DNA of 64,000 nt, from NCBI GenBank assembly GCA_043778225.1, contig JAYWGM010000066.1:16674-80673 (forward strand), written 5' to 3'. The DNA is from Deinococcales bacterium (GTDB lineage Bacteria; Deinococcota; Deinococci; Deinococcales; JAAFIG01). Numbering within the stretch: position 1 is the stretch's first letter; each line of letters opens with the position of its first letter. Below are positions 1,078 through 18,623 of this stretch, in pieces. The notes beneath the pieces were generated by a model. That model saw nothing but the letters and a program-made list of their open reading frames with translations, was not told the DNA's origin and searched no databases. Both the position numbers and the translations under genes were made by a program.

Positions 1078-1137
1078 CGGCGTGTAGGTTGGGCTTTGCC
1101 TTAATCCTTTTGGCATGGTAATGCTTGAGACAACCGC

Positions 1138-1359: not shown

Positions 1360-1377
1360 TTATGGTGTTGAACGACT

Positions 1378-1563: not shown

Positions 1564-1632
1564 ATTGTAGCGCTTGGCTCGAGCTTTGCCAAATTTGTAT
1601 CGTGTTTTTTCAAAACCTTGTATGATTGCAGT

Positions 1633-1878: not shown

Positions 1879-2306
1879 GTCTCGAGTTGTTTGATACCAA
1901 TGTTTTGTTGGCGGCTGTTTTGCCACATCGTGAAGATCATGAAATTGCACAACGGATTATCAATCAGAGTAAGCAACTTGGTCGGGCGTGTATTTGCGTA
2001 CATTCGTTGGCAGAGGCGTACAGCACTTTGAGCGGCAAACTTGGTATTCCACCAAAGCAGGCTTTTGAAATTCTCGAGTTTGCTTTGCGTGGCATGATAA
2101 TTTTAGCATTTGCGCCAACTGACCACATGAATGCGATTAAACGAATGGTTTTGCTGGGAATTGGAGGCGCAGGAATTTACGATGCGCTTATTGCAGAATT
2201 GGCTTTGCGTCATAAGTGCGACAAAATTTTGACATTTAACGCCAAACATTTTATTCGTCTGGGTGCAGATATTGCGAGTATTGTTGAAGTTCCCAAGTTG
2301 ACCTGA
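1875..2306 (+). CDS. vapC: PIN-domain ribonuclease toxin
   Basis: FDTNVL, LAEAYSTL, IYDALIA and LTFN.KHF motifs. Confidence 0.9.
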   Translation: MSLELFDTNVLLAAVLPHREDHEIAQRIINQSKQLGRACICVHSLAEAYSTLSGKLGIPPKQAFEILEFALRGMIILAFAPTDHMNAIKRMVLLGIGGAGIYDALIAELALRHKCDKILTFNAKHFIRLGADIASIVEVPKLT

Positions 2307-2401
2307 GCCTCGTATTTTTGCCAAAGCCTTATCTGATTACCTTGTCAAAGCTGTAGCACGGTGGTTATTTTGCTTGGCATGGTTAAGTTATGCTTTCTGG
2401 C

Positions 2402-3865
2402 ATGAATGTGATTGTGATAGGTGCTGGGGTCGGTGGTCTAAGCGCCGCGATTCGTTTGGCTGCCAAGGGTCTTCAAGTACGGGTTCTCGAGCGACTGCCA
2501 AACGCTGGTGGTAAATTAAATTTACTCGAGGAGGCTGGGTATCGTTTTGATACTGGTCCGAGCTTGGTGACGCTGCCTTGGGTTTTTGAGGATTTATTTG
2601 CGGCAGCCAACGAAAAAATGTCTGACTGGCTCGAGTTAATTCGGCTTGAGCCAGTCTGTAGGTACTTTTACCCTGATGGCACCGGTTTTGATGCCAGTGC
2701 TGATATGCCAACCATGATGCAGAATCTCGAGAAATTCAGTGCTGGGGCTGGTCAGGATTTTAATGCGTTTTTTGGTCATGCTGCACGGGCTTGGCGTGGT
2801 AGCCGCAAACCGTTTTTGGAAAGCAGCATCTCGAGTCCACTGGATTTTATAAAAGATGGCATTCCTTGGATGGATTTAACCGCGCTGCTACCGATTCCAA
2901 CGCTGCATGGACTAGCAAAGCGTTATTTCAAAGACCCGCGTTTACAGCAATTTGTTGGGCGGTATGCCACCTACACAGGCTCGAGTCCATACAGCGCACC
3001 AGCCACACTCAGCACGGTCTTGTATTCGGAATACGCTTACGGGGCTTGGTACGTGCGCGGCGGGCTGTATGCCATTGCTCTGGCGCTCGAGAAACTGGCT
3101 TTGAAACTAGGCGTAGAATTTAGTTTTAGCTCAAAAGTTACAAAAATTCAGACACAGAACGCAGTTGTGAATGCCGTACAACTCGAAAACGGCGAAGTGC
3201 TAACCTGTGATGCGATTATTTGCAATGCCGACGCAAATCATTTGTACGAAGACTTACTCGAGAAAAACCTTGACCCACGAAAAACCAAACTCGAGCCGAG
3301 CATTTCTGGGTTTGTGCTGCTGCTGGGCGTAGAAGGCGAAACAGAGGGACTCGAGCATCATAATATTTTCTTTTCCAGCAATTATAAAAAAGAATTCCAG
3401 CAAATTTTTACGGAACTCCAACCTGCCTCCGAACCGACGATTTATGTCTGCATCTCGAGTAAAACCGATTTAAGCCAAGCGCCGCAAAATTGTGAAAACT
3501 GGTTTATTTTGGTCAACGCACCACCCACAGGTCAAGTAGACTGGGCAGCCCAAGCACCCAAGTACGCGGCTCAGATTCTCGAGCAACTCGCAAAACGCGG
3601 TTTTGAGATTCGCAACCGCATCAGAATCCAACACATCATCTCGCCTACTGACCTCGAGCATAAGTATTTAACACACCGAGGCGGGATTTACGGCAGCAGC
3701 AGCAATACGATTAGCAGCGCTTTCTTGCGCCCTCAGAACCGCAGTCAGACAGTGCGCGGTTTATATTTGGCGACAGGCAGCGCTCACCCCGGCGGTGGAT
3801 TGCCATTGGTGATGCTCTCGGGCAAACTCGCCGCCAATGCCTTACTCGAGGACAGTAGAAATTGA
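2402..3865 (+). CDS. Phytoene desaturase family (CrtI/CrtD-like) FAD oxidoreductase
   Basis: GAGVGGL dinucleotide motif, GYRFDTGPSLVT, C-terminal GSAHPGGGLPLVMLSG; TATGCT-N7-ATG at 2402. Confidence 0.85.
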   Translation: MNVIVIGAGVGGLSAAIRLAAKGLQVRVLERLPNAGGKLNLLEEAGYRFDTGPSLVTLPWVFEDLFAAANEKMSDWLELIRLEPVCRYFYPDGTGFDASADMPTMMQNLEKFSAGAGQDFNAFFGHAARAWRGSRKPFLESSISSPLDFIKDGIPWMDLTALLPIPTLHGLAKRYFKDPRLQQFVGRYATYTGSSPYSAPATLSTVLYSEYAYGAWYVRGGLYAIALALEKLALKLGVEFSFSSKVTKIQTQNAVVNAVQLENGEVLTCDAIICNADANHLYEDLLEKNLDPRKTKLEPSISGFVLLLGVEGETEGLEHHNIFFSSNYKKEFQQIFTELQPASEPTIYVCISSKTDLSQAPQNCENWFILVNAPPTGQVDWAAQAPKYAAQILEQLAKRGFEIRNRIRIQHIISPTDLEHKYLTHRGGIYGSSSNTISSAFLRPQNRSQTVRGLYLATGSAHPGGGLPLVMLSGKLAANALLEDSRN

Positions 3866-3940
3866 ATCTCGAGCAACAAAAATACTGCACAGGTCAACAT
3901 TGTCTACCAAAAGCAACTTTTGGTATGGCGCAAGACCCCC

Positions 3941-3969
3941 TTGACAAATCTTTTAAAACGTTTTAATTT
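3941..3969 (+). promoter_or_regulatory. Sigma70 promoter with overlapping LacI-type operator
   Basis: TTGACA (3941)-N17-TAATTT; perfect palindrome TTAAAACGTTTTAA at 3953-3966 with the central CG typical of LacI sites. Confidence 0.75.
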
Positions 3970-3999
3970 TATACCAAGCAAAATAAATCCGAGGTTTTT

Positions 4000-5037
4000 A
4001 TGAACAAGCTCTTACTCGAGCTTCCGAAAATCATCACCATTCATGATGTCGCTCTGGCAGCCCAAGTTTCGATTGCCACGGTTTCTTTGGCTTTACGCAA
4101 CGATTCGCGCTGTGCGGCTAAAACAGTCACTCGAGTTCAAGAAATCGCGGCTCAGTTAAATTATGTGCCTAATCAGGTGGCTCGGAGTCTGCAAAGTTCG
4201 ACCACCGAAACGATTACGCTGGTTGTGCCAGACATTGGTAATCCAGTTTATGTTGCCATGGCAAAGGTGATTCAACGCGAGGCTCGAGCGCGTGGTTTCA
4301 GGCTGGGTTTGGTCAACAGCGACCACCAGCGCAGCGAGGAACTCTATGCCATCAATGGCTTAGCCATGCGTCATGCCGATGCTTTGATTATTTGTTCACT
4401 CAATCCAGATGCAGTGCTGATTGAAGCTCTATCTCGAGCCAATGCCCCAGTGTGTTTTATTGGACGTTTACCAGCTAACATCGAGATTGACAATGTGCGG
4501 GTGGATTCTGAAATCGGTGTGGTTTTGGGGATGAATCAATTGGTAGAAGCGGGTCATCAGCGCATTGGTTTTGTCAATGGTATTGCCAAAACAGTTCCAG
4601 CTAAAGCGCGGCTTGAGGGGTTTAAGCGAGCCTTAAAACAACATCATTTGCCTTATTCGGCTTCGTTAGTGGTGCATCACGATTTTAGTTTTGAAGGTGG
4701 CTATGCGGGGACAAGGCAGTTACTCGAGCGCCATAGCAATTTAGATGCGATTTTTTGTGCCAATGATGTCATGGCAATTGGGGCGTTGCATCGTTTGCGC
4801 GAAGTGGGTTTACGAGTCCCGCAGGACTTGGCGATTATTGGCATGGATAACATTGCCGAAGGTCGGGTTTGTACCCCAACGCTAACCAGTGTTTCGTTAG
4901 AAGCTGAAGAACGCGGTGCAATTGCAGCACAATTGTTATTTGAAAGACTCCAAGCTGAAACTCGGCTCGAGACACGGCGAGTAACAGTTCAACCGCGTTT
5001 GGTTGTGCGCCAGTCGAGTCTGCGGGTGGTCGCATGA
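4000..5037 (+). CDS. LacI-family transcriptional regulator
   Basis: TIHDVALAAQVSIATVS HTH, LNYVPN hinge, periplasmic-binding-type core. Confidence 0.95.
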   Translation: MNKLLLELPKIITIHDVALAAQVSIATVSLALRNDSRCAAKTVTRVQEIAAQLNYVPNQVARSLQSSTTETITLVVPDIGNPVYVAMAKVIQREARARGFRLGLVNSDHQRSEELYAINGLAMRHADALIICSLNPDAVLIEALSRANAPVCFIGRLPANIEIDNVRVDSEIGVVLGMNQLVEAGHQRIGFVNGIAKTVPAKARLEGFKRALKQHHLPYSASLVVHHDFSFEGGYAGTRQLLERHSNLDAIFCANDVMAIGALHRLREVGLRVPQDLAIIGMDNIAEGRVCTPTLTSVSLEAEERGAIAAQLLFERLQAETRLETRRVTVQPRLVVRQSSLRVVA

Positions 5038-5924
5038 CGCGCCGTTCAGGGATGCAAAGCCCCGGTCATGTGCCTTTGTGGTTGTTTTTACCAACCCTGA
5101 TTCCAGTGTTTTTACTCAGTGTTTTACCGCTCTTTCAGGGTATTTGGCTTGGTTTTACCGATTACACACTTGGCGCTCCTGAACAACGTTTTATTTTCTT
5201 TGATAACTTCTCGAGGATGTTCAAAGATTCGCAGTTCTGGGGTTCTTTTCAAGTTGGTGCAATCTGGACTTTTTCGGTCACTGCTGGTGTGGTTGTCTCG
5301 GGCATGGGTTTGGCGTTGTTACTTAATGCCAAGTTGCCACTCCAAGGCTTGGCTCGAGTTCTGGTGCTTATTCCGTGGGCAATTCCACCGATTATCAAAG
5401 GCGTGATTTGGCGGCTGGTTTATCATCCTCAAGCTGGTTTTTTGAACAATGGCTTGGTTAGTGCTGGGGTTTTATCCGAACCGATAGATTGGCTCAATAG
5501 TTTTACCTGGTCTCTGCCCGCCGTGATTCTGGTCGGTATTTGGACGGGTTTACCGCAAGCCACCGTGGTTTTACTGGCGGGTTTACAAACCATTCCAGAT
5601 GAACTCTACGAAGCTGCTGCTTTGGATGGTGCTTCGAGTTGGGCATTGTTTCGCTTTATAACTTTTCCGTTGTTGCTGCCTGTGATTATGGCAACCACGG
5701 CGCTCGAGTTTATGTGGCAATTTAATTCATTTGGACTGGTCTATACCCTAACCGAAGGTGGACCGGCTGGAACGACACGTTTACCGATGTTATTTGCTTA
5801 CGAAGAAGCCTTTCGTTTTGGCAATCTGGCTTATGCCTCGGCACTTGGAACGGCGATGGTGATTGTGGTCGGCGCATTGGTGCTTTATACCGTGCGAGGA
5901 CAAATTGCACAGGAGCGCTCATGA
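5034..5924 (+). CDS. Carbohydrate ABC permease (MalF-like)
   Basis: EAA loop LYEAAALDGAS; 6 TM segments. Confidence 0.92.
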   Translation: MTRRSGMQSPGHVPLWLFLPTLIPVFLLSVLPLFQGIWLGFTDYTLGAPEQRFIFFDNFSRMFKDSQFWGSFQVGAIWTFSVTAGVVVSGMGLALLLNAKLPLQGLARVLVLIPWAIPPIIKGVIWRLVYHPQAGFLNNGLVSAGVLSEPIDWLNSFTWSLPAVILVGIWTGLPQATVVLLAGLQTIPDELYEAAALDGASSWALFRFITFPLLLPVIMATTALEFMWQFNSFGLVYTLTEGGPAGTTRLPMLFAYEEAFRFGNLAYASALGTAMVIVVGALVLYTVRGQIAQERS

Positions 5925-6769
5925 CCGTTAAACAACGCCGCCTTAAATTGCAAGCTGTCCGTTTATTGATGGGTCTGGCTTTACTGGGTTATGTGTTGTT
6001 TTTAGCGTTTCCCTTGGTGTGGTTACTGGCAACGGCTTTCAAGCCAACTTCGGAAATTTTTACGACGGGCGAATTCTTACCTCGAGCGCCAACAATTGCT
6101 AATTTCGGCGAAGCCATCCGCGACCTTGGTGTGCTGAACAGCGCTTGGAACACATTTTTTGTGAGTATTACCTCGGCTATTATTACCTTAGCTATTTCAA
6201 TGCCAATTTCGTATATGTTGGCACGTCGCTCGAGTGCCTTGAACCGTGCGGTGATGGTTTGGATTCTGGTCTCGCAGACTTTTCCGTTAATCCTGATTAT
6301 CGTGCCGTTGTTCCTGATTTTAGCCCGCTTTGGTTTGGTCAATTCACACTTGGGTTTAATCATTGTTTATGTTGTCTGGAGCTTACCTTTTGTACTCTGG
6401 ATGCTTCAGGGTTACATCAAAAGTATTCCAGTTGAACTCGAGGAAGCGGCTACGGTGGATGGTGCAACTCAACTTCAGGTAATTCGCTTTATTTTGCTAC
6501 CACTGGTTATTCCCGGATTGGTCGCCACTGGGCTGTACGCCTTTATTACTTCGTGGAACGAATTTTTCTTTGCTTTGGTGCTGCTCAAAAGCCCCGAACT
6601 GATGACCATTCAAGTCAATCTTTCACGGCTTCGTGGTCTCGAGGGACTGGCACGCTGGGGTCCGTTGGCGGCTGGCAGTGTGCTGGCGACGCTACCCACC
6701 TTAATTCTTTTTGCCTATATGCAGCGCCGTTTGGTTTCGGGAATGCTGGCAGGAGGTGTAAAAACTTGA
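5921..6769 (+). CDS. Carbohydrate ABC permease (MalG-like)
   Basis: ELEEAATVDGAT, SWNEFFFAL, C-terminal GGVK. Confidence 0.92.
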   Translation: MTVKQRRLKLQAVRLLMGLALLGYVLFLAFPLVWLLATAFKPTSEIFTTGEFLPRAPTIANFGEAIRDLGVLNSAWNTFFVSITSAIITLAISMPISYMLARRSSALNRAVMVWILVSQTFPLILIIVPLFLILARFGLVNSHLGLIIVYVVWSLPFVLWMLQGYIKSIPVELEEAATVDGATQLQVIRFILLPLVIPGLVATGLYAFITSWNEFFFALVLLKSPELMTIQVNLSRLRGLEGLARWGPLAAGSVLATLPTLILFAYMQRRLVSGMLAGGVKT

Positions 6770-6823
6770 ACCAAAAAAATATCAAAATCGGCTGAACACA
6801 TCACAAATCATTTGGAGGAACGT

Positions 6824-8119
6824 ATGAAAAAAATAGTTGCCATCACCGCTATGCTGGTCGCAGGAGTCGGATTTTTAGCGGTTCAAGCTCAACAAAAACC
6901 AGTTGTTAAAGTGCGTTTTGTCAGTCTGGCGTGGCAAACCCAAGCCGTCGCGGCAGTCAAAGAAGTGGTCACGGCTTGGAATGCCAGTAATCCCAAGGTG
7001 CAAATTGATTACCAACAGGTTTCTTGGGATTCAATTCAAGATTACCTAACGACTTCGTTTGAAGCCAAGAACGTGCCAGATGTCTTTCATTATGAATCCA
7101 CGCCAATCATGGAATTTGCCACCCGAAATTATTTAACCGACCTTTCTAAACTCATTCCCAGTGAAATGAAAACCGATATTGCCCCAGGCGCTTGGAAAAC
7201 CGTGACCGATGCCAAAGGCGCAGTCTACGGCGTGCCGTTCCTATGGGAATCGTTGGTCACGTTATACAACAAAGATTTATTCAAAGCCGCCAACATTAAA
7301 ATTCCGACCAGTCAACGCCCGTGGAGCTACGCCGACCTGCAAAGTGCGGCTAAAAAACTGACTCGAGATAAAAACGGCGACGGCACAACCGATCAATGGG
7401 GAGCAGCTTTTGGCTTGCGCTCACCAACCAACCGCATCATGAACCTGAGCGTTGGTTTTGGAGCAGATTATTTTTATAAAGCTGGCGATAAATACACCGT
7501 TAAAGTGGGGGCAGACGAACAAGCCCTGCTTAAAATTCTAATGGATATGCACCACACCGATAAATCAGCTTCGCTGGATGGTCTAACTGCCCAAAGTCCA
7601 GAACTTTTCAATGGGTTTTTTAGTGGTAAATACGCCATGCTACCGGGAATCGGAGTCTGGGCGCGGCAAACCATTTCCGAATCTGGTCCTAAAGGGTTCA
7701 ACTGGGGTGTTTTGCCACCACTCAAAGCCAAAACCCAAGAACAAGGTTCAGCCACCCAAACCCTGAGCATTCCAGCAGCCGCCAGCAACAAAGCCGAAGC
7801 GGTTGATTTCATTACTTATTTGGTCAATCGGGTCAACAATGGCAAAGTCGCGGCTGGCGATTGGCTCTTTCCAACACGTCAATCGAGCTTGCGCGGAATG
7901 CCATTTCAAGGCGAAGCCAACGGCTGGAAAACCGCCACTGAATCGGCAAAATTCTTGACCATTGCCCCATTCCAACAGGTGCTTGGTTACTCCGAAATTC
8001 GTACTCGAGTGCTAACACCAACTTTTCAGCAATTACTGGCGAACCGCATTAGTCTCGAGGAAGCCATTAAACGCATTGAAACCGAAGGCAATGCAACTTT
8101 GGGTAAATACTACAAGTAA
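6824..8119 (+). CDS. Sugar ABC solute-binding protein (family 1)
   Basis: Signal peptide, YGVPF....LYNKDLF; SD GGAGG upstream. Confidence 0.92.
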   Translation: MKKIVAITAMLVAGVGFLAVQAQQKPVVKVRFVSLAWQTQAVAAVKEVVTAWNASNPKVQIDYQQVSWDSIQDYLTTSFEAKNVPDVFHYESTPIMEFATRNYLTDLSKLIPSEMKTDIAPGAWKTVTDAKGAVYGVPFLWESLVTLYNKDLFKAANIKIPTSQRPWSYADLQSAAKKLTRDKNGDGTTDQWGAAFGLRSPTNRIMNLSVGFGADYFYKAGDKYTVKVGADEQALLKILMDMHHTDKSASLDGLTAQSPELFNGFFSGKYAMLPGIGVWARQTISESGPKGFNWGVLPPLKAKTQEQGSATQTLSIPAAASNKAEAVDFITYLVNRVNNGKVAAGDWLFPTRQSSLRGMPFQGEANGWKTATESAKFLTIAPFQQVLGYSEIRTRVLTPTFQQLLANRISLEEAIKRIETEGNATLGKYYK

Positions 8120-8147
8120 TTTTTCTGGTTACTCTTGTCTTGACTTT

Positions 8148-8170
8148 AGAGGTAGGGCAACCCTACCTCT
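8148..8170. repeat. REP-like intergenic hairpin
   Basis: AGAGGTAGGG-caa-CCCTACCTCT perfect stem after the binding-protein gene. Confidence 0.65.
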
Positions 8171-8226
8171 GACGGCAAATCATTTTTTGATTTCTTAAAA
8201 CAAGAATTCTTTTTTGGAGGTTTATA

Positions 8227-9366
8227 GTGGCACAAAGTATTGAAGATGGCTCGAGGGGCTGTATTCTTGGTGGTGCAGTTGGGGATGCCTTGGGTGGTCC
8301 GACCGAGGGTCGTACCCCAGCCGCAATTCAGGAGCGTTATGGTGGCTGGGTGACGGATTTTGTTGGTCCGTTTCATTTGGATTGGCAAACGGCGCGTCCG
8401 ATTTCACCGCTTCATAAGGGCGATGGTCATATCACTGATGACACGCTGATGGTCATGGCATTAGCCAGTGTGTATGCCGATGTGCGCGATCATTTAACTG
8501 CCTTTGAAATGGCAAGTCATCTGACAGTCAAAATTGCCGATGAAGTGACGTACATTCCCGAATTTGAACGCGAGACGGTGTTGGTCAATCGCTTATTTTA
8601 TGCCGAAAAATACTTGTTGTTGCGCTTGCGCTTTGCCAATGCCGACCCTCGAGAAGCTGGGGTTGGCAATGTGGTCAATTGTGGCGCGGCGATGTATATG
8701 GCACCGGTTGGGATTGTCAATGCGGGTAATCCGCGTGGGGCGTATGCCGAGGCGATTGAATTGGCTGGGGCGCACCAAAGCAGTTATGGGCGTGAAGCAG
8801 CAGGGGTCTTGGCGGCAGCTATCGCCGAGGCACTAAGTCCTGATGCCAGTGTCGAAAGCATTATTAAAACCTGTTTGGATTTGGCTCGAGATGGGACTCG
8901 AGCTGCGATTTTAGCCGTTACCCAAGCGGCTCGAGACATTTCAAATTGGCAAGCAGCGATTCCAATTTTGCGCCAAGCGGTGCTGCCCTTTGATAGTGTC
9001 GGCGAGCATTACCGCGACCCACACCCAGATGCGCGTCGTCCGAGTCGAACCAAAGCGATTGAGGAACTGCCCGTGGCGCTTGGAATGTTGGTCATGGCAA
9101 AGGGCGAATACTTACCAACGGTTCTGGGTGGAGTCAATTATGGGCGTGATTCAGATTCGATTGCTTCGATGGGTGGAGCAATTAGTGGTGCGCTGCACGG
9201 TGCATCAGCCGTTCCTGCCGATTGGGCGAGTTTTATTCAAGAACGCAGCCGTAAGGATTTAGAACGCACGGCTCGAGACTTAGCAGCCGTTGCCAAAGAA
9301 GTCTTTTTGCGTGACCAAGAGCGTTTTGCGGCTCGAGTTGCCGCGTTTCCACAAGGTAAGCCATGA
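8227..9366 (+). CDS. ADP-ribosylglycohydrolase (ARH/DraG family) 1
   Basis: G.AVGDALG.PTEG, TDDT, NCGAAM, DSDSIASMGGAISGA. Confidence 0.92.
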   Translation: MAQSIEDGSRGCILGGAVGDALGGPTEGRTPAAIQERYGGWVTDFVGPFHLDWQTARPISPLHKGDGHITDDTLMVMALASVYADVRDHLTAFEMASHLTVKIADEVTYIPEFERETVLVNRLFYAEKYLLLRLRFANADPREAGVGNVVNCGAAMYMAPVGIVNAGNPRGAYAEAIELAGAHQSSYGREAAGVLAAAIAEALSPDASVESIIKTCLDLARDGTRAAILAVTQAARDISNWQAAIPILRQAVLPFDSVGEHYRDPHPDARRPSRTKAIEELPVALGMLVMAKGEYLPTVLGGVNYGRDSDSIASMGGAISGALHGASAVPADWASFIQERSRKDLERTARDLAAVAKEVFLRDQERFAARVAAFPQGKP

Positions 9367-10637
9367 GTGTGCGGATTACTTGGCTAAGGCTCGAGGAACG
9401 TTTAGAGCATGAGTTCAGACAACTGCGCGAAGAGGGCATAGATGCCACAGACCTCGAGCAGCAATGGGCAAACTTGCCACTTGAAACTCGAGCCGCCGAA
9501 GCTGGGCGTTTACTGGACGAAGCGGGTCGTCTAACAGCCCATGTTGCTGAAACCGAACCGCTTTTTGATGCTGGTGTGAACTTAGAAAAATACGATTTGC
9601 AAAAATGCTTAACGGCGGCTTGGACAGGTCGAATGGCGGGTTGTTTACTTGGTAAGCCTGTCGAAAAAGTGACTCGAGTTGGAATTCGAGCGATTCTTGA
9701 ATCCAACAACAGGTATCCACTGAACGATTATTTTACCAGTGTTGGTGTTCCCGACGAATTGCTCGAGCTTCATCCGTGGAATAAAGACAGTCGCGCCACC
9801 AGCTTACAAGAAAACATGATTTGTATGCCCGAAGATGATGACATCAATTACACCATGCTAAATTTGCACGTTCTCGAGATGGCTGGGGTTACTTTTAGCA
9901 CCGATGATGTTGCTAAGGCTTGGCTCGAGATGCTGCCTGTACTGACCGTATTTACAGCCGAACGGGTGGCGTATTTTAATCTGCTCGAGTACCGCGAAGC
10001 CCCACAAACCGCGACTTATCGCAATCCGTACCGTGAATGGATTGGGGCGCAAATCCGAGCTGATATTTTTGGTTGGGTTTCGCCGAGCAATCCAGCCCGA
10101 GCCGCCGCCCTCGCATGGCGAGATGCACGCCTGAGTCATACTGGCAATGGTTTGTACGCCGAGATGTTTGTGGCAGCAATGGCAGCTGCCGCTTTTGATT
10201 TAACCTCGCCTCGAGCCGTGATTGAAGCTGGTTTAGCCGTCATCCCTAAAGATTCGCGGTTAGCCGAAGCGATTATGTTTACCCTGACCCTGCCCGACCT
10301 CGAGCCAGATTGGGAAAAGGCTGTAGACCAGTTGTATGCCCAATTTGGTCATTACCACTGGGTTCATGCGATCAATAACGCCGCTTTGGTGGCGGCAGCA
10401 CTGCTTTATGGACAAGGTGATTTTAGTCGTTCGATTTGCCTCGCCGTTTCTGGAGGTTGGGACACTGATTGTAACGGCGCAACCGTGGGAAGCATCGTTG
10501 GCATCATGACCCAGAGCATTCCAGAACGTTGGAGCAAACCACTCAACAACCATGTGCGCTCGAGTTTACGAGGCTTTGACTATAGCACCATAGACAGTTT
10601 GGTGGCGCGTACTCTTGCGGTCATGAAGGATTTGTAA
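9363..10637 (+). CDS. ADP-ribosylglycohydrolase family protein 2
   Basis: GRMAGCLLGKPVE, EDDDINY, WIGAQIR, GWDTDCNGATVGS. Confidence 0.9.
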   Translation: MSVRITWLRLEERLEHEFRQLREEGIDATDLEQQWANLPLETRAAEAGRLLDEAGRLTAHVAETEPLFDAGVNLEKYDLQKCLTAAWTGRMAGCLLGKPVEKVTRVGIRAILESNNRYPLNDYFTSVGVPDELLELHPWNKDSRATSLQENMICMPEDDDINYTMLNLHVLEMAGVTFSTDDVAKAWLEMLPVLTVFTAERVAYFNLLEYREAPQTATYRNPYREWIGAQIRADIFGWVSPSNPARAAALAWRDARLSHTGNGLYAEMFVAAMAAAAFDLTSPRAVIEAGLAVIPKDSRLAEAIMFTLTLPDLEPDWEKAVDQLYAQFGHYHWVHAINNAALVAAALLYGQGDFSRSICLAVSGGWDTDCNGATVGSIVGIMTQSIPERWSKPLNNHVRSSLRGFDYSTIDSLVARTLAVMKDL

Positions 10638-11488
10638 TGCACACTGCTATGCTTTTTGTACCGGGAAACCAAGCTAGTAAACTCGAGAAAATTCTGAGCC
10701 TGAAACTAAAATCGGTGTTGCTTGACCTTGAAGATGGTGTGCCGATAAGCGCAAAAGTCGAAGCTCGAGCTTTGGTGGCGCAAACAATTGGGCAATACTC
10801 GAGCCAAACGGCATTATGGGTCAGAATCAATTCACTGGACACCGAATTTGCTTATCCCGATGTTCAGTCGGTGGTACGGGCAGGACTCCAAGGCATCAAT
10901 CTACCCAAAGTCGAAAAAGCGGCTGATTTAGCAACGCTGGACTGGCTTTTAGGGCAACTCGAACGAGAACGAGATTTACCACTCGGCTCGATTCGGGTAA
11001 TGGCGACCCTCGAGACGGTCAAAGGCATTAAAAATGCCGAGGAGATTGCTCTGAGTACATCACGGCTCGAGTGCCTGTGTTTTGGGACACTGGATTTTTG
11101 CCGTGACCTTGGTATAGACCCACAAACCAGCCTTGGAGCGCTCAATTCGGTGGTGCTGGCAGCCAAAACAAGGCTGGTACTAAGCTCAAGAAGTTGCGGT
11201 TTAGCTGCGCCGCATGATGGCGCAAGCCCAGAATTTAAGGATTTAGAGCGCCTTAAAACCGAAACACTGCAAGCCAAAGAACTTGGTTTTTCAGGCAAAC
11301 ACGCGATTCATCCAGCCCAAGTTGAAGTGATAGAAAATGTTTTTTACCCAAGCCAAGCGCAACTGATTTGGGCGCAACGCATTGTGAACGGCGCAAATTC
11401 GCAAGCCGTGTTCTCGCTTGATGGTCAAATGATAGATGCACCAGTTGTGGCTCGAGCGCAACAAATCTTAAACATGGTGAAAACATGA
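10637..11488 (+). CDS. CitE/HpcH-family acyl-CoA lyase
   Basis: LFVPG, LDLEDGV, VRIN, LPKVE, GF.GK.AIHP.Q, DGQMIDAPV. Confidence 0.9.
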   Translation: MHTAMLFVPGNQASKLEKILSLKLKSVLLDLEDGVPISAKVEARALVAQTIGQYSSQTALWVRINSLDTEFAYPDVQSVVRAGLQGINLPKVEKAADLATLDWLLGQLERERDLPLGSIRVMATLETVKGIKNAEEIALSTSRLECLCFGTLDFCRDLGIDPQTSLGALNSVVLAAKTRLVLSSRSCGLAAPHDGASPEFKDLERLKTETLQAKELGFSGKHAIHPAQVEVIENVFYPSQAQLIWAQRIVNGANSQAVFSLDGQMIDAPVVARAQQILNMVKT

Positions 11489-12663
11489 AACCACCAGCCC
11501 TACCACTCGAGGGAATTCGGGTACTTGACCTCTCGAGCCTTTATGCAGGACCCTTGATTGCCACCAATCTTGGTGATTTCGGAGCAGACGTGATTAAAGT
11601 CGAGCATCCTCGGGGCGACGACGCACGGCGTTGGGGACTGAGTAAAACCTTGCCAAACGGCACAGATATTCCGCTCTGGTGGAAGTCATTATCGCGCAAC
11701 AAACGCCTCATCACCCTCGATTTGCACTTGGCAACCGACCTCGAGATTGTGCGCCAATTGTGCCAGTGGGCGGATGTCTTAATCGAAAATTTTCGTCCTG
11801 GTCGGCTCGAGAGTTGGGGTTTAGGCGAACAAGAACTAAAAACCCTCAATCCGCGTTTAATCGTGGCTCGAGTAACAGGTTTTGGACAAACCGGTCCAAT
11901 GCAGCAGCAACCCGGTTTTGGCACGCTTGCCGAAGCATTTTCTGGTTTTGCCTTTATTACAGGCGAAGCTAACCGCCCGCCGACCTTACCGCCATTTGGT
12001 TTAGCCGATGGTGTGGCAGCCCTGACTGGAACATATGCAGTGATGATGGCGTTGTACTGGCGCGATGCCCAAAACGGTGGCTTGGGACAAGTCATTGATT
12101 TAAGTTTATACGAACCGCTCTTCTCGATTTTAGGACCACAAGCCATCGAGTTTATTCAGACCAAAACCATTCAGAACCGTCATGGCAACCGTTCTAAACG
12201 GACTTCGCCGCGAAATACCTATCAAACCCTAGACCAACGCTGGGTTGCCCTGTCTGGTGGCACACAGCAAGTGGTCAATCGGATGCTGGTCGCTATTGAA
12301 CGCCCAGATTTACTCAGCGATGCCCGTTTTGCCAATGCCAAAGCTCGAGCCAAAAATAGCGACGAACTAGATGTACTCATTGCCAATTGGATTGCCACCC
12401 ATGACCTCGAGACGGTGCTAACCACCTTTCGGGCTGCCGAAGCACCAATTGCACCTGTGTACGACATTGAACAGATTCTAAAAGACCCACAATATCAAGC
12501 CAGAGGCTCGGTAGTGCATATCGAAGATGATGAGCTTGGCACGGCTGCGATGTCTGGGATTGTGCCTCGGCTTTCGCGCACACCCGGCAAAATTAAGTTT
12601 TCTGGACGCACTTTGCTTGGGCATGACCAAGAAGAAGTGCTGAAGATGATTGGACTAAAATGA
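11485..12663 (+). CDS. CaiB/BaiF family III CoA-transferase
   Basis: PLEGIRVLDLS, AGP, GADVIKVE, NRNK-like SRNKR, ENFRPG. Confidence 0.93.
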   Translation: MKPPALPLEGIRVLDLSSLYAGPLIATNLGDFGADVIKVEHPRGDDARRWGLSKTLPNGTDIPLWWKSLSRNKRLITLDLHLATDLEIVRQLCQWADVLIENFRPGRLESWGLGEQELKTLNPRLIVARVTGFGQTGPMQQQPGFGTLAEAFSGFAFITGEANRPPTLPPFGLADGVAALTGTYAVMMALYWRDAQNGGLGQVIDLSLYEPLFSILGPQAIEFIQTKTIQNRHGNRSKRTSPRNTYQTLDQRWVALSGGTQQVVNRMLVAIERPDLLSDARFANAKARAKNSDELDVLIANWIATHDLETVLTTFRAAEAPIAPVYDIEQILKDPQYQARGSVVHIEDDELGTAAMSGIVPRLSRTPGKIKFSGRTLLGHDQEEVLKMIGLK

Positions 12664-14804
12664 AAACCGAATTACCTACTGATTTTATCGAAAAAACCTA
12701 CGCTGGTGTTCTAGGAAAACTGATTGGAGTCTACTTGGGTCGTCCCATCGAAGGTCAAACCTATGAGGAGGTCAGTACCGAATTCGGCGAGGTGCTGTAT
12801 TACCTTAACGAAGCCCGAGGCTTACCGTTGGTTGTGACCGATGATGACGTGACCGGCACATTTGCTTTTGCTCGAGCCATGACCGATTATGGTTGCAACC
12901 CAGACATCACTGCCGAACAAATCGGTCAGACTTGGTTAAACACCATCATCGAGAATAAAACTGTACTTTGGTGGGGTGGGCTAGGAAATTCGACCGAACA
13001 AACCGCTTATTTACGGCTTTCACACGGAATTGCTGCGCCAAAAAGTGGCTCGAGTGACCTCAACAGCCAAGTGGTCAGTGAACAAATCGGCGCTCAAATT
13101 TTTATTGATGGTTGGGCAATGATGTCGCCAGCCAATCCGATTTTTGCGGCTGATTTGGCGCGGCGGGCGGGCAGTGTCAGCCATGATGGCGAAGCCCTTC
13201 ATGCGGCAGCCGTGATTGCGGCAATGGAATCCCAAGCCTATCTTGAAACCGACATCAACGCCTTACTCGAGACTGGTTTATCGGTCATTCCAAACGATTG
13301 CTTAATTGCCAATTTAATTCGTGACCTTCGGGCTTGGCACGCGGTTCTACCCGATTGGCGCGAAGCCCGCCAAAAACTCGAGCAGCATTATGGCTACGAG
13401 CAATTTGGCGGAGATGTCCATGTGATTCCAAATCATGGTCTGATAATTCTAGCCTTGCTGTACGGTGCAGGCGATTTTCAGCAATCCATGATGATTGTTA
13501 ATACGTCTGGTTGGGACACCGATTGTAACGCTGGAAACTTGGCTTGCTTGCTTGGCATCCGAGGTGGACTTGCTACTTTTGAAACAGGTCCAGATTGGCG
13601 CACACCTATTGCTGACCGCTTATTCTTACCGGGAACAGATGGAAACTGCTTTATCACCGATGCCGTGATTCAAACCTATCAATTGGTCAATGCTGCCCGC
13701 CAACTGCACGGACTCGAGCCAATCAACCCAAAAAATGGCGCTCGATTTCATTTTTCTTTACCTGGCAGTCTTCAAGGTTTTCAGACCGATGAAACCAGCC
13801 TTGAAACCAGAGGTGTACTCAGGCTCGAGAACGCGGTCGTTACTACAACTCGAGCTTTGGCGTTGCATTACTCGATGCTTGCCACAGGAAGAGTTGCGCG
13901 AGCCTACAGTCAAACGTTTTTGCCCCCCCAAATTCCACTTGTACCCACGCCGGGCGTTCCAAATCCGTGGAAATACCAACCGCTTGGTGCGCCAAGTCTG
14001 TACTTCGGTCAGATAGTCGAAGCTGTTTTGATTGCTGCCCCGAGCAACCACGACGCAGTGACCGCCCAACTGTATTTGCAGCGCTACAACGCTAACGATA
14101 AGCTCGAACGTGTTTATGGTACAGCCGTTATTCTTGAACCGAACACAAAACACACGCTTATTTGGCAACTCGAGCCAGAACGCGGCGAACCCATCGCAGA
14201 AATCGGGATTGAATTGCGCTCCAAAACCCGAGCCGACGGCACAATTTACTTGGATTCGCTGGGTTGGCATGGCGAACCCAATGCCATTTTTGGACGCAGC
14301 GAACCGGATGGTATGATGTGGCGCAGGGCTTGGGTCGAAGCCGTGGACCGCGCCGATAAACGCTACCCAGAAGATTACCGAATTGTTCAAAATCAAGGCA
14401 CTGGCTTACTAATAACTGGCTCGAGAACATGGCGTAATTATGCAATGACCGCCACCGTCGAGCCTGGATTATCCGAACGTAGTGGACTGGCAATTCGTGT
14501 CCAAGGTTTACGCCGTTACTACGCTGTACTATTCACCACCCAAGGGCAAGTCCAACTGATAAAAGCACTTAACGGAGAGACAATTCTGGCAACGCAATCA
14601 TTTTTTTGGCAACGGGCTGGACAATACACGATTCGTTTTGAAGCCAACGGCTCGAGTCTGACGGTATTTATAGACAACGCCCTGGTTTTTAAGCTGACCG
14701 ACCAGCAAAACCCATTGTTAGAAGGCGGAATTGCGCTGCTTGTGACCGAAGGACGACTCTCGAGCCGCACCGTTCAAGTGCAACCACTTGGTACAACCCA
14801 ATGA
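12660..14804 (+). CDS. Large ADP-ribosylglycohydrolase 3 with C-terminal beta-sandwich domains
   Basis: GKLIGVYLGRPIEG, TDDD, IGAQIFID, GWDTDCNAGN; about 350 aa beta-rich C-terminal extension. Confidence 0.88.
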   Translation: MKTELPTDFIEKTYAGVLGKLIGVYLGRPIEGQTYEEVSTEFGEVLYYLNEARGLPLVVTDDDVTGTFAFARAMTDYGCNPDITAEQIGQTWLNTIIENKTVLWWGGLGNSTEQTAYLRLSHGIAAPKSGSSDLNSQVVSEQIGAQIFIDGWAMMSPANPIFAADLARRAGSVSHDGEALHAAAVIAAMESQAYLETDINALLETGLSVIPNDCLIANLIRDLRAWHAVLPDWREARQKLEQHYGYEQFGGDVHVIPNHGLIILALLYGAGDFQQSMMIVNTSGWDTDCNAGNLACLLGIRGGLATFETGPDWRTPIADRLFLPGTDGNCFITDAVIQTYQLVNAARQLHGLEPINPKNGARFHFSLPGSLQGFQTDETSLETRGVLRLENAVVTTTRALALHYSMLATGRVARAYSQTFLPPQIPLVPTPGVPNPWKYQPLGAPSLYFGQIVEAVLIAAPSNHDAVTAQLYLQRYNANDKLERVYGTAVILEPNTKHTLIWQLEPERGEPIAEIGIELRSKTRADGTIYLDSLGWHGEPNAIFGRSEPDGMMWRRAWVEAVDRADKRYPEDYRIVQNQGTGLLITGSRTWRNYAMTATVEPGLSERSGLAIRVQGLRRYYAVLFTTQGQVQLIKALNGETILATQSFFWQRAGQYTIRFEANGSSLTVFIDNALVFKLTDQQNPLLEGGIALLVTEGRLSSRTVQVQPLGTTQ

Positions 14805-14844
14805 ATGTATTTGATAGCCATAACCAAAAGGAAGCGGATACGTC

Positions 14845-15774
14845 GTGATTACTTTTATTGGTAGCCTGAACATGGACATCAGCACTCGAGTACACCACTT
14901 GCCAGCCCTTGGCGAAACGGTACTTGGGGGCGAAGCAACCATTGGGTTAGGCGGAAAAGGTGTAAACCAAGCAGTTGCAGCCGCGCTACTGCTACAACCA
15001 AACGAGCCTCCAGTTCGACTCATAGCCAGTCTGGGCAGTGATTCTTTTGGAAATACTGCTCGAGAACAATTAAGCCAATATCACCTGAATCTCGAGCAAC
15101 TTCATTGCAGCCCCAGACCAACAGGAATTGCCCTGATAAGCGTAGACAGCAATGCCCAAAACCATATTGTTGTCGCACCAGGAGCAAACGCCGACCTTGA
15201 ACCACAACACGTCAGCCCAGAAAATTTGCACAACTCGAGATTGGTCTGTATTTCACTCGAGATTCCAAAAGCAACATGGCAAAAAGCCATTCGTTCTGCT
15301 CGGCAAATCGGCGCAATGGTGGTGGTCAATGCCTCACCTTTGGATAAGGTAACGCCCGAAGATTTATGTGGAACAGACGTTTTGGTGGTCAATCAAATTG
15401 AAGCGATACAACTGAGTGGTCTGGCAAATCTAACCGACCTTGATCTTGCTAAACACTTACAAAAAATTGCACCAAAAGTCGTGGTCACGCTTGGCGCTCG
15501 AGGTGCAGTCTGGGTAGGAGACAACGAAGGTTACGCACCTGCCTACACGATACAAGCGCTTGATACGACTGGCGCAGGAGATACATTTTGCGGAGCGCTG
15601 TGTGTCGAACTTGCCCAAGGTGCAAATCTAGGTTCTGCGGTGCAGACTGCCAACGTTGCTGGAGCAATCTGTGCCACACGGCATGGCACAGTCGCAGCCA
15701 TGCCTACTCGAGCCGAAGTAAACCTTGTACTGCTGCGAAATCTTGAGTCAAGTTCTCAAGAAAGCAAGTTCTGA
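14845..15774 (+). CDS. rbsK: Ribokinase (PfkB family)
   Basis: GSLNMD, GGKGVNQAVAA, DTTGAGDTFCG. Confidence 0.88.
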   Translation: MITFIGSLNMDISTRVHHLPALGETVLGGEATIGLGGKGVNQAVAAALLLQPNEPPVRLIASLGSDSFGNTAREQLSQYHLNLEQLHCSPRPTGIALISVDSNAQNHIVVAPGANADLEPQHVSPENLHNSRLVCISLEIPKATWQKAIRSARQIGAMVVVNASPLDKVTPEDLCGTDVLVVNQIEAIQLSGLANLTDLDLAKHLQKIAPKVVVTLGARGAVWVGDNEGYAPAYTIQALDTTGAGDTFCGALCVELAQGANLGSAVQTANVAGAICATRHGTVAAMPTRAEVNLVLLRNLESSSQESKF

Positions 15775-15826
15775 ACTTCCTACAACTCAATTTGTACTGC
15801 ATTAGAGCTTAAATTAGAGGCTCGAG

Positions 15827-15864
15827 AAAAAACTTGTGTTGCACAAAGATAGCACAAGTTTTTT
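15827..15864. terminator. Inverted repeat after the ARH operon (possible terminator)
   Basis: AAAAAACTTGTG-N14-CACAAGTTTTTT. Confidence 0.45.
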
Positions 15865-15963
15865 GGTGTATGAACAGGGACTAAGCCAAAACAATTATCG
15901 TAACTCGAGATACTATTTTGCTACAATCATAATCTAAATTATTTGTACACGGAGAGAACCCAT

Positions 15964-17367
15964 ATGACCACAGAAACCGCCACACTTTCCACGTCTCGAG
16001 CCAACACCTTACTCTCCGAAATCCCATCTTTAGTCCAACTGGCTGTTCCTTTGGTGGCTGGTTCTGCCAGTTACACTTTTTACGGTTTAATCAATACGTT
16101 TTTTCTGGGCGGACTGGGCGAAGTGCCATTAGCTGTGGCTTCTTTAACCGTTTCGATTTCTATTATTTTCTTTGCGGCACTTTACGGAATGCTTGGACCA
16201 ATTGGGTATTTAATTGGCACAGCCCACGGCGCAGGTGACTCGAGAAAAATCGCTGAGGTCATGCAGCATGGGTTACTCGTAGCGGCTGGGATTGGTGCAA
16301 TTGGCACAGGATTAATGGCTTTAACCCTTTTTGCACTGCCATATATGAATCAGCCGCTCGAGGTTCGAGCCGTAATTGCCCCATACTGGCTTTTATCGGC
16401 ACTGGCACTGATTCCATTCTGCATTACTTTTGTTTACAAGCAATTCTATGATTCGACCGATAGAGCTTGGACTGGAACAATTTTAGCGTTAATTCCTGTG
16501 TTTTTGAATGTTCCCTTAACTTGGATTCTGGTGACTGGACAGTTTGGTTTACCGGCGTATGGACTCGAGGGTGCGGGCTGGGCAGCTTTGATTGGCAGTT
16601 GTATCGGAACTGCAATCATGGCTGGGCATTTTCATTTCACGGCTACCTTTAAGCCATTTCAGGCTTGGTCAGCTTGGAAAAAAGAAGCCTTTTTGGTGCA
16701 ACTGCGCGAAGGGCTACCGATGGGCATTCAGTATTTACTCGAAGGTGGGGCAATTGCTGTGGCGGGTGTGTTAATCGGTTGGCTTGGCTCGAGTGAACTG
16801 GCAGCCAATCAAATTGTCTTTAGTGTGTTGGGCATTTTGTACATTGTTCCCATCGGCATGAGTATTGCTGTCGGCATTCGGGTTTCGCAAGCGGCTGGTG
16901 GTGGCGAAAAACACCGCGCTCGGAACATCGGCATGGCTGGAATGCTCTTAGCCAGTGGCTGGAGTTTGGTCTTTACAGTGCTGCTGATTATTTTGGGTTC
17001 TCGAGTGGCGGCGCTGTTTGTAAGCGAACCCGATGTGATTAAAGCCGCCGCTTTGATGTTTGTGGTCTGGGGTGCAGCTCAAGTCTTTGATGGTATTCAA
17101 AGCGTGGGCGTTGGTGTACTGCGCGGCATTTTTGACAATCGGTATCCGACCGTGGTTTCTTTAATTGCCTACTGGCTGATTTCCTTGCCACTCAGTTATG
17201 CCTTTGGATTTTGGTTTAACTGGGGCGGCGCTGGAATCTGGGCGGGATTTTGTTGTGGACTGGCAATTGCCAGTGCATTGTTGATGCAACGACTCTGGAA
17301 AATGACCAGTACGGACGGCTTAGCATCTGCCCATGAACTCCAATCAAGTAGCCCCTACAAGCCATAA
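15964..17367 (+). CDS. MATE family efflux transporter
   Basis: About 12 TM segments; LA.P, GLP.G.Q..LE, AANQI, DG.Q.V..G.LRG. Confidence 0.92.
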   Translation: MTTETATLSTSRANTLLSEIPSLVQLAVPLVAGSASYTFYGLINTFFLGGLGEVPLAVASLTVSISIIFFAALYGMLGPIGYLIGTAHGAGDSRKIAEVMQHGLLVAAGIGAIGTGLMALTLFALPYMNQPLEVRAVIAPYWLLSALALIPFCITFVYKQFYDSTDRAWTGTILALIPVFLNVPLTWILVTGQFGLPAYGLEGAGWAALIGSCIGTAIMAGHFHFTATFKPFQAWSAWKKEAFLVQLREGLPMGIQYLLEGGAIAVAGVLIGWLGSSELAANQIVFSVLGILYIVPIGMSIAVGIRVSQAAGGGEKHRARNIGMAGMLLASGWSLVFTVLLIILGSRVAALFVSEPDVIKAAALMFVVWGAAQVFDGIQSVGVGVLRGIFDNRYPTVVSLIAYWLISLPLSYAFGFWFNWGGAGIWAGFCCGLAIASALLMQRLWKMTSTDGLASAHELQSSSPYKP

Positions 17368-17489
17368 GGGGGAATGGCTTTACCCAAAATAGCTATGTAC
17401 CTAATCCACAAACGCACGATGTTCTCGAGGGACGCACCACTGGCTTTGACAGCCTCCTCGGAATTTTAACCTTGTTCGATGCGCCACCG

Positions 17490-18617
17490 TTAATCACCGC
17501 GTATCACTTTACCGATTTTACTTAGCAACCCTTCTGGTGGGGCGATGCTCTCCCCTATTTCTTTGGCATACTCCTCGAGCAGTTCGCGGGCGCGTTTTGA
17601 AAGTTTTTTAGGGACTTCAACTGCCACGGTCACGATCAAATCACCTTCACCTCGAGCTTGTAAACGCGGCATTCCTTTACCGCGTAAGCGCAGCGTGTCG
17701 TTGGGTTGCGAGCCATGCGGAATCTCGAGCGGTTGCGAACCATCCAAAGTCGGAATCTCGAATTTTGCACCCAAAGCCGCTTGCGCCAAACCGATGTGAG
17801 CAGTGTAATGCAGGTCGTCGCTGTCTCGAGTCAGGTACGGGTGCGGCGTGAGTTCTAAAAAGACATATAAATCGCCAGCCGGACCACCAAACATTCCGGC
17901 ATTGCCCTGTCCAGCCACGCGCAAACGGTAGCCCCCATCGATGCCTTTGGGCAGCGTGACCGTGACTTTTTCGGGTTTGATGGTGCGTCCGCGCCCATGG
18001 CATTTGCTGCATGGCTCGGGGTTGAGTTCGCCAGTGCCTTTGCAGGTCGGGCATGGGGCAGCCGTCATAAAATTGCCCAGAATGGTGCGTTGCTGTTGGC
18101 GCACTTGCCCCGCCCCACCACAGGTGGCACAGCTTTGTAAACCCTTACCGCCCGGCTCGGCTCGAGAACCACCGCAACGGTCGCAGCCAATCAGTTTATC
18201 TATTTCAACTTCGATGTCCGCCCCAATGCGCGATTGCTCGAGACTGATGTTGACCTCGACTTGTAAATCCTCACCTCGAGCCGCTCGTTTGCCACCCCGC
18301 CCAGCGCCGCGCTGTTGCCCAAATGGGTCGCCACCAAAAACACTGTTAAATAAATCAAATAAATCACCCATCCCCGCGCCCTGAGTGCCAAAGCCACCGC
18401 TCGGGCTGCCAACTTTGCCAAACTGGTCGTACTGAGCGCGTTTTTCGGGGTCGGACAACGCACCATAGGCTTCGTTAATCGTCTTAAATTTTTCTTCGGC
18501 TTCTTTATTGCCCGGGTTCTTATCGGGGTGGTATTTGAGGGCTAAGGCTCGGTAGGCACGTTTAATTTCGTCACTGTCGGCGGTTCTCGAGACTCCGAGT
18601 AATTCGTAATAATCCAT
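17490..18617 (-). CDS. dnaJ: Chaperone DnaJ
   Basis: [10 protein letters not shown]-domain with HPD, G/F region, four CxxCxGxG-type repeats. Confidence 0.96.
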
Positions 18618-18623
18618 AACTAA

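Follow-up and report, generated by a model that had tools for sequence, protein, structure and literature searches.

Organization of the operon

The 64-kb window analysed here (the whole stretch of 64,000 nucleotides, from contig JAYWGM010000066.1 of a Deinococcales bacterium) contains an operon at 4000–15774 on the + strand in which genes for three proteins of the ADP-ribosylglycohydrolase (ARH) fold, ARH_A, ARH_B and ARH_C, accompany genes for a LacI-family repressor, a sugar-type importer, a CitE-like lyase, a CoA-transferase and a ribokinase-like kinase. The ten open reading frames (ORFs) are co-oriented, and their domains were assigned with Pfam and NCBIfam. An earlier description of the same DNA, called here the sequence-only reading, had listed ten co-oriented genes with these domains and with stop and start codons that mostly overlap; the same ORFs and domains were recovered, and six of the nine junctions overlap, five through ATGA and one through TAATG. 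The ten genes are a real nutrient-uptake operon.

The first gene (4000–5037, +) encodes the repressor, with Pfam LacI and Peripla_BP_3 domains; its best NCBIfam models, RbsR, CytR and PurR, all score below cut-off. The helix-turn-helix domain, the periplasmic-binding-like core and a palindrome with a central CG, the predicted operator, are those of the LacI/GalR family. The stop codon of this gene overlaps, through ATGA, the gene for ATP-binding cassette (ABC) permease 1 (5034–5924, +; MalF/UgpA-like and of CUT1 type by PF00528, BPD_transp_1, and NCBIfam), which is followed by permease 2 (5921–6769, +; MalG-like by PF00528, MalG/GlcU-like by NCBIfam) and by a secreted solute-binding protein, SBP_bac_1 (6824–8119, +; PF01547). 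The start of the last gene at ATG 6824, as in the sequence-only reading, is backed by a GGAGGA ribosome-binding site and by the signal peptide MKKIVAITAMLVAGVGFLAVQA at the N-terminus of the product. The SBP_bac_1 binding protein and both MalF/MalG-like permeases of a CUT1 importer are thus present. The ten genes do not include one for an ABC ATPase, and no search was made for one elsewhere; CUT1 systems are known to share an ATPase that is encoded elsewhere.

The remaining genes, all on the + strand, are those for ARH_A (8227–9366), ARH_B (9363–10637), the CitE-like acyl-CoA lyase (10637–11488), the family III CoA-transferase (11485–12663), ARH_C (12660–14804) and the PfkB kinase (14845–15774). 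A 10-bp stem-loop at 8148–8170 (+), between the binding-protein gene and ARH_A, could be an mRNA-stabilising or attenuating hairpin; an Rfam scan of window positions 1–20000 returned no RNA family.

Three further signals were, like the stem-loop, read directly from the sequence. A −35-like hexamer, TTGACA (3941–3946, +), belongs to the putative operon promoter; the perfect 14-bp palindrome TTAAAACGTTTTAA (3953–3966) is the likely LacI operator; and an A/T-rich hairpin followed by a T-run (about 15832–15865, +) is the likely operon terminator. The palindrome occurs as an exact copy only once in the window, and copies with up to three mismatches (8 found, 5.7 expected) are in no excess over chance. 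Of the single promoter with a LacI palindrome proposed earlier, the hexamer and the palindrome stand; a consensus promoter scan did not call the promoter at 3941, because its −10 region is weak. The terminator hairpin likewise escaped the scan because its stem has fewer than three G–C pairs. The G+C content of the operon (0.495) is like that of the remaining window (0.483), and composition therefore gives no sign of recent transfer.

The three ARH proteins

All three proteins match PF03747 over its full length (model positions 1–287; E 1e-44 to 1e-48; cut-off 26.2 bits). ARH_A, at 379 aa, is of classical size and scores 157.1 bits; ARH_B (424 aa) scores 163.3 bits at residues 85–389, behind a conserved N-terminal extension of about 85 aa; and ARH_C (714 aa) scores 152.2 bits at residues 16–305, ahead of two β-sandwich domains of lectin/carbohydrate-binding-module (CBM) type. 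The sequence-only reading had called the three divergent, with acidic metal motifs kept in each, and BLASTP comparison and orthologue alignments agree. ARH_A is barely detectable against ARH_B or ARH_C (E about 0.01), and ARH_B and ARH_C are 33% identical across 240 aa. Invariant residues are D20, E27, T70-D71-D72, D308, D310 and S311 in ARH_A (alignments of 18 and 26 orthologues), E101, E157-D160 (EDDD) and D367-T368-D369 (DTD) in ARH_B, and E31, D61-D63 and D286-T287-D288 in ARH_C (20 orthologues each, acidic motifs). The invariant TDD-type and DxD[T/S]-type residues presumably form a binuclear metal site, as in the structures of ARH3 and DraG.

The proteins are distant from the characterised members of the fold. 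ARH_A gives partial matches of 39.9 bits to the DraG model TIGR02662 (cut-off 337) and 41.2 bits to the Tri1 model NF041672 (cut-off 490); in NCBIfam, ARH_B and ARH_C have no hit to the DraG or Tri1 models, and ARH_B has no hit to any model. Weak sequence relatives of ARH_A in the PDB are MJ1187, DraG and ARH3, and a PDB sequence search gave no match for ARH_B or ARH_C. An AlphaFold2 model of ARH_C (mean pLDDT 75) consists of a helical ARH domain, residues 1 to about 350, and then the two β-sandwich domains. Foldseek matches the N-terminal part of this model to MJ1187, ARH3 and DraG, and the C-terminal part to the β-sandwich/lectin region of galactocerebrosidase, to CBM66 (TMt 0.76) and to galectins. 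CBM66 binds fructans. Since ARH_C lacks a signal peptide, it is expected to act in the cytoplasm. A prediction of an ARH_A–ARH_B complex scored 0.00 and gives no verdict on a heteromer.

The kinase, the acid module and the binding protein

The operon kinase (PfkB, 180.6 bits) finds ribokinases in all 15 of its PDB matches, the best being 6znx (E 1.8e-60). In the alignment with 6znx it keeps GSLNMD, GGKGxNQA and DTTGAGD, corresponding to GSxNxD near the N-terminus, GGKGxNQA and DTxGAGD, which we take to be the motifs of the ribose and ATP sites. The kinases linked to related clusters lie closer to the ribokinase model TIGR02152: three of six exceed its cut-off of 299.65 bits, and the other three score 280–290.

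The CitE-like lyase has an HpcH/HpaI fold (PF03328, 143 bits; gathering score 25). Its best-scoring NCBIfam model is citE, TIGR01588, at 196.5 bits, and the equivalog cut-off of 443.4 is not reached; the RipC model gives 152 bits. Relatives in the PDB are acyl-CoA, malyl-CoA and citramalyl-CoA lyases, among them the D. radiodurans “CitE”, RipC (3qll) and CLYBL (5vxc). Neither CitF nor CitD/ACP was found in the source genome, which is 89% complete; the expected substrates of the lyase are therefore CoA esters supplied by the adjacent transferase. For the same reason, the ribosyl-dephospho-CoA prosthetic group of citrate lyase was considered and rejected as an ARH substrate. The CoA-transferase matches PF02515 (CoA_transf_3) at 376.6 bits (gathering score 23.3). 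In NCBIfam it scores best with models of dicarboxylate CoA-transferases, none of them above cut-off and with no substrate-specific equivalog reached; its PDB relatives are 4ed9, SUGCT (9br6) and YfdE. Among solved structures, the binding protein comes closest to AbnE, which binds arabino-oligosaccharides (6rjy, E 1e-19).

Conservation in Deinococcales and Actinomycetota

A lack of conserved gene linkage elsewhere had been named beforehand as a result that would refute the sequence-only reading; the linkage proved to be conserved. Among 200 other genomes of the window's own order, eight carry an ARH_B orthologue (E ≤ 1e-60), and in seven of these the ARH_A, CitE and CoA-transferase genes are found with it in the 20-kb surroundings, as are LacI, both permeases and the binding protein. 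The proteins of the seven clusters are 45–79% identical to those of the window, except for the CitE-like gene of one (L100) at 33%; part of the ARH_B gene is masked in another (L102). Six of the seven clusters have ARH_C. Two clusters, L097 and L098, are split into two divergent units with the linkage kept; it has thus survived rearrangement. Operator-like sites with one or two mismatches to TTAAAACGTTTTAA precede the LacI orthologue in L095, L096 and L100, and weaker candidates with three or four mismatches were found in three further loci. Named relatives of ARH_B occur in Deinococcus, Trueperaceae, Meiothermus, Calidithermus and Halothermothrix. In L096 a DDE transposase gene (17188–18279) borders the orthologous cluster on its LacI side, in keeping with the patchy occurrence of such clusters.

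The sequence-only reading had also expected similar clusters in actinobacteria, and these exist. An ARH_B orthologue (E ≤ 1e-80) occurs in 14 of 401 sampled Actinomycetota genomes. Seventeen places were compared, the best matches of 13 genomes and four second matches, one short contig being excluded. A block of ARH_A, ARH_B, CoA-transferase and CitE genes is present in nine of them, and in six of these nine a ribokinase gene stands between ARH_B and the CoA-transferase. L105 and L107 have two additional ARH genes ahead of the block, and L112 has at least one. On one side the block borders VIT1, and the opposite flank holds lgt, a dsbA-like gene, trpB and trpC; these clusters are devoid of ARH_C, LacI and the ABC importer.

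Four of the eight places counted as misses are second-tier ARH_B paralogues (L118–L121); as candidates for the orthologous cluster they were rejected, since they stand in another context. In one of them (L120, 8118–10545) the paralogue is 43% identical to ARH_B and adjoins a Sir2-family gene, a classical ADP-ribose context. A CitE-like gene lies 5 kb away in L120, among genes for proteins of the methylmalonyl-CoA mutase family, acyl-CoA dehydrogenase and mesaconyl-CoA hydratase, a neighbourhood that probably belongs to the ethylmalonyl-CoA pathway.

The ARH_C family

ARH_C belongs to a very large family. Of 8,000 scored candidates 7,396 were significant homologues, and another 7,000 were scored for ARH_B. 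Full-length relatives of ARH_C at 52–56% identity are mostly from Chloroflexota; two proteins, P0004 and P0005, are 72–75% identical to it. In a midpoint-rooted FastTree phylogeny of 89 sequences (LG+gamma), the ARH_C of the window groups with P0004, P0005 and P0006 (support 1.0 and 0.996) in a part of the tree dominated by Chloroflexota. A metagenome scan with ARH_C found no close relative, the maximum identity being 51%. Three metagenome contigs (L150, L152 and L154) carry four tandem ARH_C-type paralogues of about 700 aa, 37–46% identical to that of the window, directly behind ABC permease genes; this tandem expansion resembles the glycosidase arrays of polysaccharide utilisation loci.

ORF clustering at 80 reference-genome loci of ARH_C shows that the company it keeps is that of nutrient uptake: permease 2 in 34 loci, permease 1 in 33, the binding protein in 29 and LacI in 22. 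Upstream sequence of 5 kb or more is available at 53 loci, and at 21 of these a permease gene ends within 1.6 kb upstream on the same strand. A PfkB kinase is found in 13 of the 80 loci, directly downstream in 11, and ARH_A-like genes in eight. No conventional glycosidase was found among the recurrent neighbours tested. These associations, taken with those of the preceding section, point to two separable modules, one of ARH_C and the importer and the other of ARH_A/B, the CoA-transferase and CitE. Linkage is conserved within the two modules across phyla.

Proposed function and alternative explanations

We propose that the operon, repressed by LacI, serves the catabolism of a ribofuranosyl conjugate taken up by the importer; the ribose of this conjugate would be phosphorylated and the hydroxy-dicarboxylic acid part degraded via its CoA ester. 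We give this proposal about an even chance of being right. The binding protein and the two CUT1 permeases would import the compound, probably with an ATPase encoded elsewhere. The three ARH-fold enzymes, of Mg/Mn type, would then hydrolyse ribofuranosides in the cytoplasm instead of freeing proteins of ADP-ribose: ARH_C, which carries two carbohydrate-binding-like domains, may take the larger or glycan-like part, and ARH_A and ARH_B may cut the smaller ribosyl bond or bonds. Released ribose would be converted to ribose 5-phosphate by the ribokinase-like kinase. The family III CoA-transferase could activate a C4–C6 hydroxy-dicarboxylic acid part, of malate, citramalate or citrate type, and the CitE-like lyase would cleave the resulting CoA ester to acetyl-CoA and a 2-oxo acid. 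The esterase found in related clusters hints at an ester bond in a fuller substrate.

The strongest arguments for release of ribose are the recurrence of ribokinase genes and the lack of a conventional glycosidase among the recurrent neighbours, and the strongest argument for an acid moiety is the conservation of the ARH_A/B–CoA-transferase–lyase block in two phyla. The sequence-only reading is supported in part, by the conserved linkage, by the recurrent ribokinases and by the separation of the ARHs from DraG and Tri1. Its idea of one compound for all ten genes is of another kind: we infer the individual reactions, the release of ribose, and the presence of the acid in the molecule that yields the ribose.

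Several observations weigh against the proposal. We know of no ARH-fold enzyme that has been shown to act on a simple riboside, and “ribofuranosidase” as a term occurs nowhere in the collection of papers searched. The operon kinase, at 243.9 bits, falls below the TIGR02152 cut-off, and the window encodes a canonical ribokinase elsewhere (39155–40105, − strand; TIGR02152, 306.6 bits), 23 kb from the ribokinase-like gene of the operon. Of the seven related Deinococcales clusters, four encode a PF00756 esterase and three a protein of about 650 aa that ends in an FGE-sulfatase domain; both are absent from the operon. (The N-terminal 480 aa of the latter protein have no Pfam or PDB match.) No ARH_B orthologue was found in 18 genomes of the same family, seven of the same genus included, nor was ARH_C found in those seven. 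The actinomycete clusters have no transporter adjacent, which fits turnover of an internal metabolite.

The history of ARH_C weighs in the same direction. CitE, the CoA-transferase, the esterase and the FGE fusion are each absent from all 80 reference-genome loci of ARH_C (tblastn, E ≤ 1e-8, at least 40% coverage), and 33 metagenome loci likewise contain neither CitE nor the CoA-transferase. The acid module may thus act on one compound and ARH_C on another. The ARH_C proteins of Deinococcus-type clusters form a separate clade (support 0.97), apart from that of the window, and identity to the Deinococcus-type counterparts is 67–79% for ARH_A, the binding protein, the permeases and the CoA-transferase but only 41–50% for ARH_C. 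On these grounds the operon appears mosaic. It looks like a Deinococcus-type unit of LacI, importer, ARH_A, ARH_B, CitE and CoA-transferase in which a different ARH_C and a ribokinase may have replaced the esterase and FGE-fusion genes.

It is because the two modules are separable that an explanation by two unrelated pathways stays alive. Gene shuffling would have brought into one transcription unit an importer, ARH_C and kinase for a ribose glycoside, and ARH_A/B, CoA-transferase and CitE for some other compound, such as a free acid of citramalate, malate or itaconate type or an internal metabolite. The ARH_C loci without CitE or CoA-transferase are as this explanation would have them, as are the Streptomyces-type clusters, which contain ARH_A/B, CoA-transferase and CitE without ARH_C or a transporter, and the different lineage of the window's ARH_C. 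Nevertheless, ARH_C, importer and acid module occur together in six of the seven Deinococcales clusters, even after rearrangement. In the window ARH_B and ARH_C flank the CitE and CoA-transferase genes, stop and start codons overlapping at the junctions, and ARH_A accompanies ARH_C in eight of 80 loci, so that the modules share parts. We regard two pathways as unlikely.

A second alternative, which we judge somewhat less probable still, keeps the enzymes closer to their known chemistry. The ARHs would process compounds derived from ADP-ribose (the O-acyl-ADP-ribose of sirtuins, free or oligomeric ADP-ribose, or ADP-ribosylated small molecules), the acyl acid being recycled via the CoA-transferase and lyase and the ribose via the kinase. 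All characterised enzymes of the ARH family act on ADP-ribosyl bonds, and the closest solved folds are MJ1187, ARH3 and DraG; the actinomycete clusters without a transporter and the esterases of related clusters are also consistent with such substrates. The composition of the operon argues otherwise: Pfam identifies no Nudix hydrolase, phosphatase, ADP-ribosyltransferase or sirtuin in it, and it is headed by a LacI repressor and a CUT1 sugar-type importer. Moreover, the paralogue that adjoins the Sir2-family gene in L120 is of a separate and more distant lineage. In the excerpted text of PMC13036486, S. coelicolor SCO2028 and SCO2030 are inactive on uracil-linked ADP-ribose, a result that bears on the operon only if these proteins belong to the orthologous cluster, as is presumed.

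Two further explanations carry little weight. The released sugar could be another furanose, or the step catalysed by the ARH fold could be non-hydrolytic, a ring opening or a lyase reaction; the sub-threshold score of the kinase, the affinity of the binding protein's best solved relative for arabinofuranose oligomers, and the description of CBM66, a fold match of ARH_C, as a carbohydrate-binding module would all be accommodated. We consider this very unlikely, because cluster-linked kinases of relatives reach or approach the ribokinase equivalog score and because the window's own kinase matches only ribokinases in the PDB and keeps the ribose-site motifs. That the ARHs are DraG-type regulatory protein de-ADP-ribosylases, present in a sugar operon by chance, accords with Pfam family membership and intact metal motifs but is most improbable given scores of about 40 bits against cut-offs of 337 and 490, translational coupling of three paralogues to metabolic genes, co-occurrence with ribokinase, CoA-transferase and lyase kept across phyla, the lectin/CBM-like domains of ARH_C, and the lack of a transferase partner nearby.

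If the ribofuranosyl-conjugate proposal is extended beyond this operon, the ARH fold would include a very large and unrecognised class of cytoplasmic “ribofuranosidases”, many of them fused to carbohydrate-binding-like domains. Together with importers, ribokinases and CoA-transferase/lyase pairs, they might constitute a widespread pathway, in Deinococcota, Actinomycetota (including Streptomyces), Chloroflexota and marine bacteria, for an abundant ribosyl conjugate, possibly of ribose and a malate-, citramalate- or citrate-type acid, that would be new as a metabolite. We advance this extension tentatively and are more inclined to doubt it than to assert it. Its interest lies in the fact that the fold has been studied almost only as an eraser of ADP-ribosylation, and that thousands of bacterial members reside in nutrient-uptake operons. 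Hydrolysis of ribosides or of ribose-containing glycans by these proteins would make both the enzyme class and the catabolic route new. It would also give the eight “uncharacterised DraG/ARH homologues” of Streptomyces a function open to testing, and would point to an unrecognised ribose-containing compound in soils, mats and sea water. The operon of the window is a compact, low-GC, ten-gene version that should be easy to express.

Other genes in the window

Immediately upstream of the operon lies a gene for a carotenoid desaturase of the CrtD/CrtI family (2390–3865, +), which passes the crtI_fam cut-off but not the cut-offs of the CrtD equivalogs. This crtD gene is present in six of seven same-genus genomes at 83–91% identity without the operon adjoining it. 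In none of the same-genus genomes does LacI or the downstream MATE gene lie within 1.5 kb of crtD, and the comparison thus shows no clean empty site. A gene for a MazE/AbrB-type antitoxin (1528–1878, +) overlaps one for a PIN/VapC-type toxin (1875–2306), forming a type II toxin–antitoxin pair; an orthologue of the PIN gene is found near crtD in one same-genus genome (L125).

A second cluster of LacI, binding-protein and permease genes (30539–37642, −) ends in a gene for a 690-aa glycoside hydrolase of glycogen-debranching/MGH1-like type. This cluster, a sugar operon of conventional type, makes a useful contrast with the ARH operon. In the DnaJ ORF (17490–18773, −) the J domain begins at residue 54 of the longest frame, and the true start is probably downstream of the listed GTG.

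Comparison with known systems

A full-text search of the literature for the gene combination of this operon found no description of it, and comparison is therefore made part by part. The ARH proteins resemble the characterised family (ARH3, ARH1, DraG, Tri1 and MJ1187) in matching the whole PF03747 model, in keeping the acidic motifs and in the superposition of the ARH_C model on MJ1187, ARH3 and DraG. They differ in that the DraG and Tri1 equivalogs are missed by roughly 300–450 bits, ARH_B and ARH_C lack a PDB sequence match, and ARH_C has two extra β-sandwich domains. The context differs as well: an importer, a kinase and a CoA pathway are found here, without a transferase or a signalling partner.

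The CoA-transferase and the lyase are the same enzyme pair as the family III CoA-transferases and citramalyl-/malyl-CoA lyases that act in degradation of itaconate and citramalate (human SUGCT and CLYBL; Yersinia RipC), and SUGCT 9br6, CLYBL 5vxc, RipC 3qll and malyl-CoA lyases are among their relatives. Unlike those systems, the operon has no itaconyl-CoA hydratase, no equivalog cut-off is reached, and the pair sits among ARH genes. Resemblance to the citrate lyase CitDEF is limited to the choice of TIGR01588 as best model for the lyase; the score is far under the cut-off, and the other subunits, CitF and CitD, were not found.

In E. coli yegTUV a transporter, an ARH-family protein and a PfkB sugar kinase, all annotated “putative”, are encoded in one operon. 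The annotations agree with the pairing cited in the sequence-only reading, and the relationship is distant: YegU resembles ARH_A alone, at 25% identity, and the match of YegV to the window's kinase spans a stretch of only 97 aa. The transporter of yegTUV is of MFS type, its ARH is single, and it has no acid module.

Among Streptomyces genes, S. coelicolor SCO2028–SCO2031 are listed as uncharacterised DraG/ARH homologues in the excerpted text of PMC9411070 and PMC5087735. The actinomycete loci L105, L107 and L112 are alike in having consecutive ARH genes with CoA-transferase and CitE genes, near lgt, the dsbA-like gene, trpB and trpC. Judged from this trp neighbourhood, loci of their type probably correspond to SCO2028–2033.

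Excerpts of Glowacki et al. (bioRxiv 10.1101/574913) portray the rus loci of Bacteroidetes as polysaccharide utilisation loci built on SusC/D, in which an MFS-type protein transports ribose, and include neither a CoA-transferase nor a CitE lyase. Pfam identifies no SusC- or SusD-like gene among the ten genes of the window operon, which is thus a functional analogue of these loci and not one of them. In the same excerpts the rus loci scavenge ribose by means of ribokinases, a regulator (sometimes LacI), a transporter and variable cleaving enzymes that include ADP-ribosylglycohydrolases. They thereby offer a precedent for the combination of ribokinase and ARH seen in the operon.

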